From a virus, in the IMG/VR virus record IMGVR_UViG_3300048114_000266, positions 1-51,354 of that record: a stretch of 51,354 nucleotides of DNA; one strand, 5' to 3'. This document shows, piece after piece, positions 1 through 51,354 of the stretch. Within the stretch, counting starts at the first letter, position 1. Each line of letters opens with the position of its first letter. A program made the translations under genes and the position numbers. Under the pieces are notes generated by a model, which saw only the letters and a list, made by a program, of their open reading frames with translations, was not told the origin of the DNA and did not search any database.

Positions 1-583
1 CCGCTTTCAGTTTCCCCCATGCGATTGCACCGACGATTAGGCCGGCCCCGATTATCGGCCACCCGACGGCGGCGATTATCAGCCCGGCGGTAATCGTCCC
101 CCATTTCAGCGCGCCCAAGACGTCGCCGCCCATGATTTTCCCGAACGTGATTGCTCCCGTGATTGCCGCCGCGCCGATTACGGGCCATTTGATAGCCGAC
201 ATGATTGCGCCGGCCGATATGCCGCCGCTTACCAGCCCACCGATACCGCCCGAAAGTAGACTTCCCAAGCCGCCGGATAGGATACCGCCGGCCGCCGCGC
301 CACCGCCAAGCCCCAACAGCCCGCCGAACTTCCCGGCGATACCTCCTAATGTGCTACGTAGAATCGTAAAGCGTTCGTCGGCGTTTTCGGCTTCTTCGGC
401 CGCTTCTTCGGCTTGGTCGGCCGTTTGGCCCATTTCGTCGCCAAGTTCGCCGACTTGCGACCCCGCCGACCGTGCCGTTTGACCAAGTCCCGAATATGAT
501 TCGTCAAGTTGGCCGACTTGGGCACGGGATTCTTCGACGCCCGTAACCTTCGCTTGGTATTCGATAGTGCCGATTTGAACCAT
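1..583 (-). CDS. Tape-measure-like tail protein, N-terminal segment; the gene crosses the contig junction and continues at 51354..50419
   Basis: ATG at 583-581 with an in-frame stop just upstream (611-613). Frame stays open to position 1 and is in phase with ORF 50419..51345 when the 127-bp terminal overlap is collapsed. Translation begins MVQIGTIEYQAKVTGVEESRAQVGQLDE, then Gly-rich hydrophobic repeats. Sits directly downstream of the G/GT chaperone pair. Confidence 0.55.
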   Translation of the reverse strand, partial: MVQIGTIEYQAKVTGVEESRAQVGQLDESYSGLGQTARSAGSQVGELGDEMGQTADQAEEAAEEAENADERFTILRSTLGGIAGKFGGLLGLGGGAAAGGILSGGLGSLLSGGIGGLVSGGISAGAIMSAIKWPVIGAAAITGAITFGKIMGGDVLGALKWGTITAGLIIAAVGWPIIGAGLIVGAIAWGKLKA

Positions 584-628
584 TTGGGCGTATAGCGTTC
601 CCCGACCGCCTTAGCCCTTCGGCGTGCG

Positions 629-1138
629 TTACCCGTTGCGTGACTTCGCCTTCCGTTCTTGGCGCTTCCGACGCCGTTCGATTTTTTCTTCGCGTAGTTC
701 TTCGCGTTCGGCGTGAATCGACAAGCGACGGTCGACTTCGCCTTCGGTCATGCCGTCGGTCGACGACTTCGTGACGATTGCCGTCGGCGCGGGCGCTTCG
801 AAGACGCTGTCGGGAGCGTGGCGGTAGACGGTCGCCGCGACCACGGCACCCACAAGGGCGACGAATGTCCCGGCGTATTCTAAGCCGGCTAACGCCGTGG
901 CTACGCCGACGAAGGTGAACGGTGCCCAAACGCACGCGGCGACGCGACGACGCCCCACGCGGCTACACGCACGCCGCGCTACGGCCGCCAAGTCGTGACG
1001 ACGTTCGACGTGAACGCCGCGCCGGACGTCGCCGCGTATGTCCCGGCGCGTCAGCCCCGCGTTTTTCGTAAGAATGTATTCCGCGACTTCGCCTTGTATC
1101 TGCATTCCGCGAACGGTGCGCGCGGGGTCGCCGCGCAC
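629..1138 (-). CDS. T-like extension ORF, probably expressed as a G-T fusion by -1 frameshift from the upstream chaperone-like gene; own start (GTG 1138 or ATG 1105) uncertain
   Basis: ORF track 629..1138 lies in the -1 frame relative to 1147..1575 and is open across that gene's stop. Located between the putative major tail protein and the tape-measure gene. Has a hydrophobic segment and a basic C-terminus. Confidence 0.4.
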   Translation of the reverse strand: MRGDPARTVRGMQIQGEVAEYILTKNAGLTRRDIRGDVRRGVHVERRHDLAAVARRACSRVGRRRVAACVWAPFTFVGVATALAGLEYAGTFVALVGAVVAATVYRHAPDSVFEAPAPTAIVTKSSTDGMTEGEVDRRLSIHAEREELREEKIERRRKRQERKAKSRNG

Positions 1139-1146
1139 CGCCCGCT

Positions 1147-1575
1147 TTATTTTCCCCGGTCTTCGCCGCTCCCCGCGCCGAACGGGTCCGGCACTTCTTC
1201 GGTAAGGGCTTCGAAGTCCGTCGACATGGACGATAAGAAGGTCGCAAGACCGGGCACGCCGTCTTCGTGCGCCCCGAACCAGTCGACGACCATGTATTCA
1301 AGCATGTCCGTGTAGTAGTCCGAAGAAAGCGATTGCTGGGGCGACCCGTCGTCGCCTTCGCTGATTGTTAGGTTATTTTCTAACACTTCGTTCTTCTTCC
1401 GAAGCGGGACGTCGGCCTTCAATTCGAACCAGTACGCCCGCGCTTCGTCGTCTTCGTCGGGGTCGCCGGTCGTGACCCACACGGTGCGCGTCGCGGACTT
1501 GTCGACGGTCGCGTCTTCGAACGACCCAATTTCGTACCCTTCCGGCGGTTCAGGTTCCGGGGCGTCGTTTGCCAT
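1147..1575 (-). CDS. Tail assembly chaperone-like acidic protein (G-like)
   Basis: ORF track, ATG start, 142 aa, strongly acidic; sits between putative major tail protein and tape measure; ends in the slippery site. Confidence 0.55.
   Translation of the reverse strand: MANDAPEPEPPEGYEIGSFEDATVDKSATRTVWVTTGDPDEDDEARAYWFELKADVPLRKKNEVLENNLTISEGDDGSPQQSLSSDYYTDMLEYMVVDWFGAHEDGVPGLATFLSSMSTDFEALTEEVPDPFGAGSGEDRGK
1150..1156 (-). other. Candidate -1 programmed ribosomal frameshift slippery heptamer G_GGA_AAA
   Basis: Minus-strand sequence CGG GGA AAA TAA at 1158-1147 places a canonical X_XXY_YYZ heptamer on the last two sense codons of ORF 1147..1575; the -1 frame continues GGG AAA ATA AAG CGG GCG GTG... 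into ORF 629..1138. Confidence 0.5.
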
Positions 1576-1617: not shown

Positions 1618-2628
1618 TTAGGCCGGCGCAAGGTACGACGTCGACACTTGGGTATCCGTGACCAAGATTTGCGCCGTGTTCGGCGTAATCGTCACTTCGA
1701 CTTCGTTCGCACCTTCTTCGGGAATGCTATGGGGCGCTTCCGACAGCCCGATACTCCCCGCTTCGTAGCGGAACACTTCGCCCGACGGCTTGGTAAACTG
1801 AATCGACGCCGACCCCGCGTCGTTCGCGTTCAGTAGTTCGGTATATAGCGAATCGTTCGTCACGGTAATCGTCGCTGTAAGTTCGTGTTCGGCGTTCGCA
1901 TACAGCACTTCGAACGGGTCGCGGCCGGACGCTTCCGCGATATAGTGTCGCGGGTCGGCGTTGGTCGTAAGTTCGTGTTCGAAGTTCGTGACGCGGGCGT
2001 AGGAGTTTCCGAAAAGCGAAAGGTTGCTATTGACGTCGTCGAAAATCCACGGGTTCCGGTCGTCAGCGTCGACGCCCGTGGTCGGCGAACTTCCGGGCGT
2101 GACGCCCATAGCAAGCATGTCTAAGTCCGTGGTAAGCCGCCCTTCGTTATCGACCGAAATGGTCACGCCCGGCGGGACGCCGCCCGTGAACGTCCGCACG
2201 AAGTCGTCGGCCCCGCCACGGCCGAAGTATGCCGCTTCGATAGTGACCGACGGCGGCTTCTTGTCGTTCAGTACGTCGATAGTGTGTAGCGTCGTACCCG
2301 TTTCGCTGACTTCCGACCCCGTCGCGTCTAAGTTCGTGTCGGCGGTGACGGTGTCGTTCCCGAAGGCAAGCGCCACGGGGAAGCCGTCGACCGGGATAAC
2401 GGGGAGCGTGCCACCGTCGTAAGTCCGTTGCCCCGGATACTTGTCGGACAATTCGCGGGACGCTTCGCCGCTAATCGACCGTTCTTCAAGCCAATCAATC
2501 GACGGGTCGGGAAGTTCAGTTTCGCCGCTAATCTTTCCGAACGTGCGCGTGACTGACGCCGCCGTACCTTGTTCGGATTCGACCCCGACCAAGATTTGAC
2601 TGTCGTGCCGAACATACGGGTCGGACAT
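1618..2628 (-). CDS. Putative major tail protein
   Basis: ORF track, 336 aa, acidic Thr/Ser-rich; assignment is by position upstream of the G/GT pair only. Confidence 0.5.
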   Translation of the reverse strand: MSDPYVRHDSQILVGVESEQGTAASVTRTFGKISGETELPDPSIDWLEERSISGEASRELSDKYPGQRTYDGGTLPVIPVDGFPVALAFGNDTVTADTNLDATGSEVSETGTTLHTIDVLNDKKPPSVTIEAAYFGRGGADDFVRTFTGGVPPGVTISVDNEGRLTTDLDMLAMGVTPGSSPTTGVDADDRNPWIFDDVNSNLSLFGNSYARVTNFEHELTTNADPRHYIAEASGRDPFEVLYANAEHELTATITVTNDSLYTELLNANDAGSASIQFTKPSGEVFRYEAGSIGLSEAPHSIPEEGANEVEVTITPNTAQILVTDTQVSTSYLAPA

Positions 2629-2743
2629 TCTTATCCCCGAATATCCGCCGTCGCGCCTTAACGTTTAGTTACGGGTCGGGCCGGTGTATATGCGACAAGT
2701 TTATATGCCTACCCGTCCAAGTGGGTAGTAGGTGCGAACCCCT

Positions 2744-3310
2744 ATGACCGAAACCCAATTCGACGACACGACCCGAACCGACCTTACGAACGCCGACGTC
2801 GCGACCGACGACACGGTGCGCGTCGTTTGCATGAACCCGGAAACCGGCGAAGAATTCGACGTCACGGGCGACGTCGCCACGACCTACGCCGACCACAAGT
2901 TCGCCGTCGAAGGCGACGACGGCGTCGTCGTTATCCTGAACGACGACACGAAGGAGGTTCGCGAAGGGTCGTTCGCTGACGGCTTCGACACCGTCGAAGG
3001 CTTCCGCCCGGTCTTCGTGGAATTCGCGACCGAAGGCGACCGCGAAAACGTCGACGCTGACGCCGACGACACGCTTGTCTACGATAACGTAGTTCACGGC
3101 GCGAACGAATCCACGGGCAAGGAATTCACGAAGACGAAGACGGTCGAACACACGGGCGAAGTCTACGCCGAAGACGGCGGCGTGACGGCGTTCCGCTCCC
3201 CGGACTTCGACGGCGTCTTCTTCGTCGACGACGGCGGTACGGTCGAATACGACCCCGCTGACGAAGCGCGCGACCGCTACGAAGTCGGGACGTCCGGCCG
3301 AATCGAATAG
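2744..3310 (+). CDS. Hypothetical acidic protein on the opposite strand, embedded in the structural operon
   Basis: ATG at 2744 (ORF track alternative start 2732) preceded by the conserved promoter-leader cassette in plus orientation; begins MTETQFDD. Confidence 0.55.
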   Translation: MTETQFDDTTRTDLTNADVATDDTVRVVCMNPETGEEFDVTGDVATTYADHKFAVEGDDGVVVILNDDTKEVREGSFADGFDTVEGFRPVFVEFATEGDRENVDADADDTLVYDNVVHGANESTGKEFTKTKTVEHTGEVYAEDGGVTAFRSPDFDGVFFVDDGGTVEYDPADEARDRYEVGTSGRIE

Positions 3311-37840: not shown

Positions 37841-39358
37841 CTATTCGTCGTCGTAGTCGACGCCGGGGAGGTTCGTTAGGTTCCACCCGTTCGACGACAT
37901 GCCCGTCCCGGCCGAATGCGTGTCGTCGCACGACGGGCACGAAAGACCCAGCGACCGACTGACTTCCGTGCGGCGGCCGGCCGAATAGTGGGACGTGCGT
38001 AGCATGGGAACCTTGTCAGCGCCACACGTCGGGCACGTCGACAGCGCGTCGAAGACGTCGCGACCCTTGTCCGTGGCGACCCACGCCGCGTCGGGGTCGT
38101 CGACGTCGGTATCGCGGTCGTCGGCGCGGGCAATCAGCCCCGTGTCTTCGGCGTCGCGTAGCACCGTGCGGAAGTAGCGGAACTTGTGGGCGAACCCCTT
38201 CGGGCGGCGTAGTCCCGTGCCGGGCTTTCCCGTGTCGCCGCGCCCCGTCGAAACGCGACCTTGTTCGCCGGTCTTGACCGGGCCGACGTCTTCGGGGTCG
38301 ACTTCGTCGTCGCTGTCGAACATGCCGCCGTCGGTCGCGGCGTCGACGCCCGCCACGTAGTTGCCCCAGTAAATCACGTCGCGAAGAAGCGACGTGATAT
38401 GATTCGCGTCGAAGGACTTGTGTTCAGACATGCGCGCTTCGACGTCGTCGGGAAGGTCGGCGTCGTCGACCGACCACACGGTCGCGCCTTCGCACGACGG
38501 GCACACGTCGCCGAAGTGTTCGTGCGTCTTCTTGGCCGGCGTTTCCCATTCGTCGCCGCAACGGGAGCATTCGAACGTGTCGACGTAGGCTTCGGCGGTC
38601 TTGTTCATGTCGTCGTCGTATTCCGGGCTGACGTGGGCCTTGTCGTTCACCGCGCCGACGTATTTCTCAAGCGCAAGCGTGCGAACGACGTTCGCGAACG
38701 TCGTCAAGTCGTCGTCTTCGTAGTCGTCGACCTTCGCTTCCCATTCGTCGACGTCTTCGAAGTCAGTCGACACGCCGTCGTCGGGAATAGTGGCGCGGTA
38801 GAAGGTCGGCGCGTCGGCGTCGGTCGGGTCGACGTCGTCGCGGTCGGTCATGCGGCGGCCGACGACGACTTCGAAGGGGCAATCGTCTTCCGGGCACGTA
38901 TGCCGCGCCGTGTGGTCGTCGTCATATTCGGCTTCGTGGCCGCCGTGAACGGGGCACGTCACGCGGCCGGCGAACGATAGCGATTCGACGGGCGCGTCGC
39001 GGTCGTAGGATTCGACCACCTTGTGAACGATTTGGCCATCTTCGACCGTCGTGTGCGTGTTCCGTTCGTGGCGGACCATGAACGTCGTGTCGCTGTCGCT
39101 GACGTGACGAAGGTAGTGGTCACGGTCGCCGTGTTCGTCGTCAAGCACCGCGTCGACGGTGACTTCGCCGCCGTCAGCGACGGCGTTCCGGGCGCGGAAT
39201 TCAGCGATTGCGGCTTCGGCGTTGGCCCGAAGCGTGTCGACGGCCGGGGCGTCGTCGGGGAGGTTCGCCGCGACGGGGGCGACTTCGTTAATGTAGGCCG
39301 CAAGGCGGGCGGTCGAAAACCGTTCGACGTCGACGTCGGCTTCGGTGGTTTCGGTCAT
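37841..39358 (-). CDS. Large hypothetical protein with several Cys pairs
   Basis: ATG at 39358 within ORF track 37841..39370; begins MTETTEADVDV; motifs CPVHGG, CSRCGDE, CPSCEG, CPTCGAD. Confidence 0.6.
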   Translation of the reverse strand: MTETTEADVDVERFSTARLAAYINEVAPVAANLPDDAPAVDTLRANAEAAIAEFRARNAVADGGEVTVDAVLDDEHGDRDHYLRHVSDSDTTFMVRHERNTHTTVEDGQIVHKVVESYDRDAPVESLSFAGRVTCPVHGGHEAEYDDDHTARHTCPEDDCPFEVVVGRRMTDRDDVDPTDADAPTFYRATIPDDGVSTDFEDVDEWEAKVDDYEDDDLTTFANVVRTLALEKYVGAVNDKAHVSPEYDDDMNKTAEAYVDTFECSRCGDEWETPAKKTHEHFGDVCPSCEGATVWSVDDADLPDDVEARMSEHKSFDANHITSLLRDVIYWGNYVAGVDAATDGGMFDSDDEVDPEDVGPVKTGEQGRVSTGRGDTGKPGTGLRRPKGFAHKFRYFRTVLRDAEDTGLIARADDRDTDVDDPDAAWVATDKGRDVFDALSTCPTCGADKVPMLRTSHYSAGRRTEVSRSLGLSCPSCDDTHSAGTGMSSNGWNLTNLPGVDYDDE

Positions 39359-39420
39359 AGTGGTTCGCACCTACTACCCACTAACAGGGCTACGGTAATA
39401 AAGGTGTCGGCGTTGCACCA
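39359..39420 (-). promoter_or_regulatory. Promoter-leader cassette
   Basis: Gene-strand cgccgacacc-TTTATTA-ccgtagccctgttagtgggtagtaggtgcgaaccact-ATG. Confidence 0.6.
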
Positions 39421-50418: not shown

Positions 50419-51354
50419 CTAACGAACCCCCGCGCGGTCGTTAGTCTTGTCACCGACACGTTCCGCAATCTTGTCGGCAAGTTCTTCTAACGTCCGGCGG
50501 TCGACGTTCGTCGGGTCGAATTCGCCCGACAAGTCGATTGTAATGCCGTCGATTGCGACCGACGTCCCGCCGCCACCGCCGCCCGACGCGGCCGCACTAA
50601 CAAGCGGTTCGGGAATGACGGCTTCGCCCTTGTGAATTTGGGCGACGCCGTCGGATTCTACCATGCCGCCCGAAGCCATTCCCCGGACTTGTTCGCCCGC
50701 CCATTCACCAAGCCCGTGAATCGGGTTATTCGTCATTACGTTTTCTATCGTATTCGCCGCTCCGGGGTTATTTTCAGCGAATCGTGAACCCGCCCTTCGT
50801 GCCGGACCCCACCCGTCGCCACCGCCGGCTATTTCGGCAAGGATTTGGCCCGCCGTCAGCGTCGGCCATACGATTGCGCCGACTATCATACCGCCCGTGA
50901 TAGTCCCGAACCCGATTGCGGCGGCTATCAGCCCGCCCGTGACCGCGCCGAACGGTATCGACTTCAATAGTTGGCCGCCCGATATGACCTTGAACGACAT
51001 GGCCCCGACGACTAACGCCGCGCCGATTACGGGCCACCCCAGCGCGCCGACGATTATGCCGGCCCCAATCGTCGCCCACGACAGCGCGCCGACGACGTCG
51101 CCCGCTTTCAGTTTCCCCCATGCGATTGCACCGACGATTAGGCCGGCCCCGATTATCGGCCACCCGACGGCGGCGATTATCAGCCCGGCGGTAATCGTCC
51201 CCCATTTCAGCGCGCCCAAGACGTCGCCCGCTTTCAGTTTCCCCCATGCGATTGCACCGACGATTAGGCCGGCCCCGATTATCGGCCACCCGACGGCGGC
51301 GATTATCAGCCCGGCGGTAATCGTCCCCCATTTCAGCGCGCCCAAGACGTCGCC
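50419..51354 (-). CDS. Tape-measure-like tail protein, C-terminal segment (same gene as 1..583)
   Basis: ORF track 50419..51345; the TTG start there is an artefact of the window edge. Contains two identical 42-aa repeats plus one diverged copy, then a Gly-rich C-terminus. Confidence 0.55.
   Translation of the reverse strand, partial: GDVLGALKWGTITAGLIIAAVGWPIIGAGLIVGAIAWGKLKAGDVLGALKWGTITAGLIIAAVGWPIIGAGLIVGAIAWGKLKAGDVVGALSWATIGAGIIVGALGWPVIGAALVVGAMSFKVISGGQLLKSIPFGAVTGGLIAAAIGFGTITGGMIVGAIVWPTLTAGQILAEIAGGGDGWGPARRAGSRFAENNPGAANTIENVMTNNPIHGLGEWAGEQVRGMASGGMVESDGVAQIHKGEAVIPEPLVSAAASGGGGGGTSVAIDGITIDLSGEFDPTNVDRRTLEELADKIAERVGDKTNDRAGVR
51103..51354. repeat. Two perfect tandem copies of a 126-bp in-frame repeat inside the tape-measure-like gene; a further copy forms the window start (1-127)
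   Basis: The string gacgtcgcc-cgctttcag recurs at 51094, 51220 and 51346, giving a 126-bp period; encodes the 42-aa unit LGALKWGTITAGLIIAAVGWPIIGAGLIVGAIAWGKLKAGDV. Confidence 0.8.

Follow-up and report, generated by a model that had tools for sequence, protein, structure and literature searches.

Predicted programmed −1 ribosomal frameshifting in the tail chaperone genes of an uncultivated haloarchaeal siphovirus

We analysed a stretch of viral DNA of 51,354 nucleotides (IMG/VR record IMGVR_UViG_3300048114_000266; 'the window' refers to this whole stretch) and find that its pair of tail chaperone genes, at 1575..629 on the minus strand, is very probably expressed by programmed −1 ribosomal frameshifting of the lambda G/GT type. 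We favour this reading of the sequence because homology spans the junction of the two reading frames, the slip site is kept among relatives, an RNA hairpin 3′ of it covaries, the downstream part of the pair has no conserved start and the pair lies between the genes for the tail tube and the tape measure. The same frameshift has already been inferred and annotated for the haloviruses HCTV-1, HCTV-2, HCTV-5, HVTV-1 and HVTV-2, of which the window is a new, uncultivated relative. Added here are the range of slippery heptamers across the family, a covarying hairpin in the clade of the window and a likely mis-annotation of HHTV-2 gp47/gp48.

Genome and gene neighbourhood

The window begins and ends with an exact direct repeat of 127 nt (1–127 = 51228–51354), which shows that the assembly closes into a circle of about 51.2 kb. 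It is best explained as the circle of an uncultivated haloarchaeal siphovirus related to the Saparoviridae. Its capsid protein shares 50% identity with the capsid proteins of HCTV-2 and HHTV-2, both haloviruses of the Saparoviridae, and its tail tube is 41–45% identical to the annotated tubes of HCTV-2 (45%), HHTV-2, HCTV-5 and HVTV-1/2. Neither a megablast search of GenBank phages with the first 6 kb of the window nor a tblastn search of phages with the reconstructed fusion of the two chaperone parts (G and T) returned a match; the cultured relatives were reached via tail tube and capsid protein searches, not via the fusion. The clade to which the window belongs is separate from HCTV-2 and is known from metagenomes only. 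The features of the locus, all on the minus strand, are as follows.

1618..2628, minus strand: tail tube (major tail) gene, 336 aa, directly upstream of the chaperone pair (PF18906 Phage_tube_2, E = 4.9e-23; phrog_290, E = 1.5e-24)
1147..1575, minus strand: G-like tail assembly chaperone ORF, 142 aa, pI 4.05, frame 0, ending GGA AAA TAA
1150..1156, minus strand: slippery heptamer G_GGA_AAA (X_XXY_YYZ form), comprising the last two sense codons of G and the preceding Arg wobble base
1147..1149, minus strand: frame-0 stop codon TAA, abutting the heptamer
1109..1145, minus strand: predicted RNA hairpin 3′ of the slip site, from fold energy, pairing across loci and covariation
629..1150, minus strand: T part, the −1 frame extension of 173 codons, from the re-read A at 1150 to 632, with its stop at 631..629
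1..583, minus strand: 5′ part of the tape-measure gene (ATG 583..581), which wraps round the circular contig
50419..51354, minus strand: 3′ part of the tape-measure gene (51354..51228 duplicates 127..1)

The gene order on the minus strand is thus tube (2628..1618), G (1575..1147), T (to 629) and tape measure (from 583). The original prediction had placed the pair between a putative major tail protein and the tape measure, and both neighbours are now identified, the first by its PF18906 match and the second by a match of the reconstructed 463-aa protein to phrog_15478, tail length tape measure protein (E = 1.5e-9). The tape-measure protein is short and built mostly from repeats of about 40 aa that are hydrophobic and rich in glycine; GALKWGTITAGLIIAAVGWPIIGAGLIVGAIAWGKLKAGDV is present in them as two identical copies. 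Opposite to the surrounding minus-strand head–tail module lies a plus-strand ORF (2732–3310) that encodes a very acidic protein of 192 aa; it is probably a real gene, because no other among the ten ORFs compared reaches its codon score of +0.454 per codon.

Slip site and reading frames in the window

The 3′ end of the G ORF reads GAA GAC CGG GGA AAA TAA. The heptamer G_GGA_AAA lies where the original prediction had located it, on the last two sense codons before TAA (heptamer 1156..1150, stop 1149..1147), and it is the sole canonical in-frame heptamer within the 148-nt overlap of G and T. The −1 frame, said to be open through the site into the listed ORF 629..1138, is stop-free from 1297 to 632; it passes through the slip site and contains that ORF, and a −1 stop between 1156 and 1138, which had been named as possible counter-evidence, is absent. 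A −1 shift at the heptamer gives a computed product of 315 aa, close to the approximately 310 aa anticipated, with the junction at residue 142.

Canonical heptamers are found in frame at 11 of the 8,024 codon positions (0.14%) of 19 confident genes of the window. GGGAAAA at 1156..1150 alone sits at a gene end, and the −1 ORF behind it, with 173 codons, is the longest (0–96 behind the others), which argues that the slip site is more than a chance occurrence. Another in-frame canonical heptamer, GGGAAAG at 38225–38231 on the minus strand, lies mid-gene in 37841..39370, and the −1 frame is open there for 69 codons.

Codon usage gives a compatible picture of the frames. When a log-likelihood is trained on 14 long window genes, its preference passes from frame 0 to frame −1 around position 1125, and the −1 ORF scores +0.147 per codon while all of the ORFs that overlap it, on both strands, score negative. 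The overlapping ORFs 504..935 (minus), 963..1301 (minus), 995..1315 (plus) and 1038..1205 (plus) were therefore rejected as non-coding by codon usage.

Proteins and homology of the fusion

Comparison with the chaperones of related haloviruses, as the original prediction had proposed, shows the fusion to be homologous across its junction to the joined chaperones of HCTV-2 and HCTV-5. It matches phrog_35486 (E = 8.6e-22) in a single stretch, residues 12–203, that crosses the junction at residue 142, and phrog_25860 (E = 2.7e-12) over residues 21–311, which align to positions 46–314 of the 322-position profile. Both families consist of joined, frameshift-annotated chaperones; phrog_35486 represents the HCTV-5/HVTV-1 type (251 aa) and phrog_25860 the HCTV-2 type (322 aa), assignments that we checked with the HCTV-2 and HCTV-5 fusions. 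The T ORF alone matches the C-terminal parts of these profiles (phrog_35486, E = 1.2e-13; the second chaperone PHROG, E = 1.4e-3). The G ORF alone matched no PHROG or Pfam family, and there was no Pfam match for the pair.

The two parts of the fusion differ in character. T has a pI of 10.9 and G one of 4.05; most neighbouring structural proteins fall between 4.1 and 4.5, and the proteome as a whole lies near pI 4. T is laid out as two hydrophobic helices followed by a long charged C-terminal helix. The hydrophobic helices (fusion residues ~212–250) form a predicted hairpin that resembles a membrane hairpin, and this segment is absent from the HCTV-5/HVTV-1 type. The AlphaFold2 (AF2) model of T (pLDDT 90) resembles only HHTV-2 gp48 and the joined chaperone of HCTV-2. 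The model of G appears to resemble tail assembly chaperones of bacterial phages, among them those of HK97 (2ob9) and Mu (FS-gp41) and including known frameshift products. In one G homologue (protein P0001, L023 1501–2058), about 45 aa are inserted that contain two CxxC pairs and resemble a zinc ribbon.

Relatives of T were collected by an exhaustive HMMER search of 1.84 billion representative proteins and relatives of G by a search with the G ORF alone; a word-indexed protein search with the whole fusion returned one match only, as low-complexity words filled its candidate list. T yielded 27 cluster representatives, all of 77–195 aa, and G yielded 17, all of 136–185 aa and ending in GK, GN or KK. 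There is no in-frame fused G–T homologue among these 27 T and 17 G representatives. Because all T and G relatives stay short, the split between the two is ancestral and not a sequencing error.

Slip site and downstream start across related loci

We compared 21 distinct loci, comprising four cultured haloviruses and contigs from IMG/VR, JGI, ENA and Logan. One metagenome scan contributed a single extra locus to this set, and a scan of genomes for proviruses found none. A canonical X_XXY_YYZ heptamer is present at the homologous place in 16 of the 21 loci, in seven versions: GGGAAAA (nine loci), TTTAAAC (two loci) and, in one locus each, AAAAAAA (L002, an A7 run), CCCAAAA, AAAAAAG, AAAAAAC (HCTV-2) and GGGAAAG (HCTV-5). 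The original G/GT-type reading is thus supported by a site that relatives either conserve or swap for another slippery heptamer. The remaining five loci have partial sites that retain just the A_AAN slip: G_GAA_AAC in HHTV-2, L018 and L019, A_TTA_AAC in L029 and A_GTA_AAA in L027. The stop codon abuts the heptamer in 16 of the 21 loci, follows one codon later in four and lies 27 nt later in HCTV-5.

Where the heptamer changes, its first base, the wobble base of the codon before, varies in step with the two bases that come next (CGG-GGA, CGA-AAA, CGC-CCA, GAT-TTA), the pattern expected if the X_XXY_YYZ form were itself under selection. The slip sites fall into the same columns in an alignment of seven reconstructed fusions, in which an invariant A-x-R comes right after the slip site and a DIRG motif further on. 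Conservation of the −1 frame begins at this point, with the motif K-[IV]-x-x-A-[VI]-R-G starting at the slip site itself. Just past the site, the mean pairwise identity of the −1 frame peptide is 0.64 compared with 0.48–0.51 in the other two frames, and the variation falls mostly at third codon positions of the −1 frame. Three codons upstream of the shift point, the −1 frame is closed in L023, L026 and HCTV-5, and entry must therefore be at the heptamer.

A T start is available in the window at GTG 1138 or at ATG 1105, 8 nt and 41 nt, respectively, after the stop. The original statement that T has no convincing start of its own thus holds across the relatives, none of which shares a conserved one, but not for the window taken by itself. 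At +4, GTG stands in 8 of the 21 loci and GTA, GTC, GTT, CTA, ATA or ATC in the others; at +15, ATG is found in five and is otherwise replaced by Leu, Phe, Val or other codons. In L034, L018 and HCTV-5, none of ATG, GTG and TTG is present up to 24 codons from the site, and the T starts chosen by gene callers are spread over about 60 alignment columns. The downstream ORF is without a positionally conserved start among the 21 loci, which is a comparative statement and not a property of the window alone. At L034 (1870–2430), the gene caller put a reverse-strand gene over the T ORF, which shows how a frameshifted extension drops out of automatic annotation.

A covarying hairpin 3′ of the slip site

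A stem-loop 3′ of position 1147 had been suggested as something to look for, and a predicted hairpin that covaries among relatives was found at 1145..1109. The full stem in the window pairs 1145..1132 with 1122..1109, and the hairpin counts 16 pairs. Its minimum free energy (MFE) is −31.2 kcal/mol (z = −2.8 compared with dinucleotide shuffles), which is in the lowest 0.03% of 7,991 sense-strand segments of 45 nt from this genome. An 11-bp core (1142..1132 with 1122..1112) is common to 16 loci of the clade of the window; it leaves out the three outermost pairs of the stem in the window, which lack conservation. The window-specific extension starts 4 nt after the heptamer and the conserved core 7 nt after it.

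Support from RNAalifold had been weak: with no structure given, it returned a weak consensus of seven pairs on 14 loci, and on five loci its covariation term was slightly unfavourable. We therefore specified the structure of the helix explicitly and compared it with slid-partner controls. Over the 16 loci, core positions pair in 86.9% of cells compared with 34–51% when the partners are slid, five pairs are altered on both sides and none of 500 shuffles reaches the covariation score. At L034 there are four consecutive compensatory pairs, GGUACUACG/CGUAGUACC compared with GGCGGUGCG/CGCACCGUU in the window (two G–U pairs), and the arms GGCGGU/ACCGCC of L026 become GGCCGU/ACGGCC in L027 via synonymous changes. 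The hairpin overlaps the conserved peptide A-V-R-G...R-T, and part of its conservation could be driven by the protein.

The element appears to be a feature of the clade. No structure comparable to it follows the sites of HCTV-2 and HCTV-5; in the HHTV-2 group there is, at most, a stem of longer range. A long-range stem noted with the HHTV-2 site, GGCGGUN...NACCGCC, shows compensatory changes. A search of positions 900..1400 of the window, on either strand, with the curated frameshift-element families of Rfam 15 gave no match up to E = 1. Upstream of the slip site, inspection of the aligned sequences by eye for a Shine–Dalgarno-like stimulator revealed nothing conserved. The G+C-rich hairpin probably stimulates the slip.

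Proposed mechanism and alternative explanations

We propose that most ribosomes would stop at TAA 1149..1147 and release the acidic G protein of 142 aa, and that a minority would slip back by one nucleotide at G_GGA_AAA. In this event, the P-site tRNA-Gly, on GGA, and the A-site tRNA-Lys, on AAA, would re-pair in the −1 frame with GGG and AAA, and the hairpin at 1145..1109, 4–7 nt downstream, probably impedes translocation and so stimulates the slip. Slipped ribosomes would read on to 632 and make a G–T fusion of 315 aa, a minor product beside the major G, of which the C-terminal 173 residues would be a basic domain with a hydrophobic helical hairpin. Both the occurrence and the efficiency of the slippage we infer from sequence. 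By analogy with lambda, G and GT would together chaperone the tape-measure protein, recruit the tube protein and stay out of the virion.

Among the findings that weigh against frameshifting are the possible T starts in the window and the partial sites in 5 of the 21 relatives. The first of these fits an arrangement of two separate genes, in which T would initiate at GTG 1138 or ATG 1105, for example by termination–reinitiation, and the heptamer would be incidental. The distances of 8 nt (GTG) and 41 nt (ATG) past TAA suit such an arrangement, GenBank and RefSeq list HHTV-2 gp47 and gp48 separately, and gene callers call T alone everywhere. However, neither start is conserved and L034, L018 and HCTV-5 are startless within 24 codons; protein conservation in the −1 frame already sets in at the slip site, before any start is reached; the heptamer persists despite base changes; and the fusion outscores its separate parts on the profiles of joined chaperones. 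We consider separate initiation of T improbable.

The same fusion could arise at the level of the mRNA if RNA polymerase realigned on G4A4 and left some transcripts one base short, and the longer A runs of some relatives (A7 in L002, A6 in L026 and HCTV-2) would lend themselves to this. The window and most of its relatives, however, have only GGGG followed by AAAA, or TTTAAAC, and runs as short as these are too short for efficient transcriptional realignment. What is conserved is the codon-phased X_XXY_YYZ form, including its wobble covariation, and not the length of the run, and the conserved hairpin stands at a spacing typical of ribosomal frameshifting; we regard transcriptional slippage as highly improbable. 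Least weight of all, next to none, goes to a single long chaperone gene broken by a one-base homopolymer indel or an assembly error. Homopolymers are prone to indels and the window is a metagenomic assembly, but the two-frame layout recurs in 21 independent loci, including four cultured viruses of the Sanger/454 era, and the 27 T and 17 G representatives include no in-frame fused homologue. Programmed −1 ribosomal frameshifting is thus the best-supported reading.

Comparison with known systems

The frameshift in the tail chaperone genes is conserved among long-tailed phages (Xu, Hendrix and Duda 2004, as summarised in PMC5009743). According to reviews that cite Pietila 2013 and Sencilo 2013, −1 frameshifting 'appears to be utilized' by HVTV-1, HCTV-1, HCTV-2 and HCTV-5; these reviews present it in haloviruses as inferred only (PMC5009743, PMC8211752). 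The record of HVTV-2 carries the annotation 'putative programmed translational -1 frameshift'.

In HCTV-2 (Saparoviridae, KC292028), gp40/gp41 stand in the same order of tube, G, T and tape measure. The joined coding sequence is 322 aa long compared with 315 aa for the fusion of the window, and its heptamer abuts the stop as in the window, but is a different one, A_AAA_AAC. The T parts share the DIRG motif, the hydrophobic helices and the charged C-terminal helix, although the fusions are only about 23% identical and no strong hairpin follows the HCTV-2 site. HCTV-5, HVTV-1 and HVTV-2 (Druskaviridae) have a homologous joined G–T fusion, and their −1 frame motif GK-VRAAIRG matches GK-IKRAVRG of the window. 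The HCTV-5 type, with the heptamer G_GGA_AAG in HCTV-5, differs in that 27 nt separate the site from the stop that follows it, no hairpin was detected after the site and T lacks the hydrophobic segment of about 50 aa present in the window, the fusion being 251 aa long.

HHTV-2 gp47/gp48 (L009 4532–5475; genes 47 and 48 of KC292024 / NC_021340) are annotated as separate in both GenBank and RefSeq. They are homologous to the joined chaperone of HCTV-2, and their site, G_GAA_AAC TGA, is non-canonical in the P-site codon. The annotation as separate genes is likely to be a mis-annotation.

The G and GT genes of lambda occupy the same gene position as the pair in the window, and the lambda heptamer, G_GGA_AAG, is nearly that of the window, G_GGA_AAA. 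In both, the shift lies near the 3′ end of G and leads to a minor fusion product, as we propose for the window. They differ in that there is no detectable sequence similarity between them, the T domain of the window is lineage-specific and the host translation system is archaeal. The lambda slip site is not known to need a downstream structure, whereas the window has a conserved hairpin.

The only −1 programmed frameshift shown experimentally in Archaea is that of fucA1 of Saccharolobus (S.) solfataricus (PMC8211752). Its heptamer, A_AAA_AAT, is followed by a putative stem-loop, similar to the arrangement in the window (PMC8211752). Unlike the window, fucA1 is a crenarchaeal gene for a cellular enzyme, its two halves make up one enzyme and it is unrelated to virion assembly.

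Implications

The finding leaves knowledge of tail assembly unchanged, and its consequences are first of all for annotation. We recommend that the two 'hypothetical proteins' of the window, and those of about twenty related metagenomic loci, be annotated as a G/GT pair joined by ribosomal slippage; the same annotation applies to gp47/gp48 of HHTV-2. The clade also offers a compact natural set of variants for reporter tests, with seven heptamers and hairpins that carry compensatory changes.

A more far-reaching, combined reading, which we put forward as speculative and unlikely to hold in full, is that the clade of the window has the first clear archaeal-virus cassette of heptamer, abutting stop and covarying G+C-rich hairpin at canonical spacing, and also that T is a strongly basic, lineage-specific domain whose helical hairpin is membrane-like, and not a tube-binding domain of the lambda kind. 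If this were true, T would either mask the hydrophobic, glycine-rich repeats of the tape-measure protein or hold tail assembly at the membrane.
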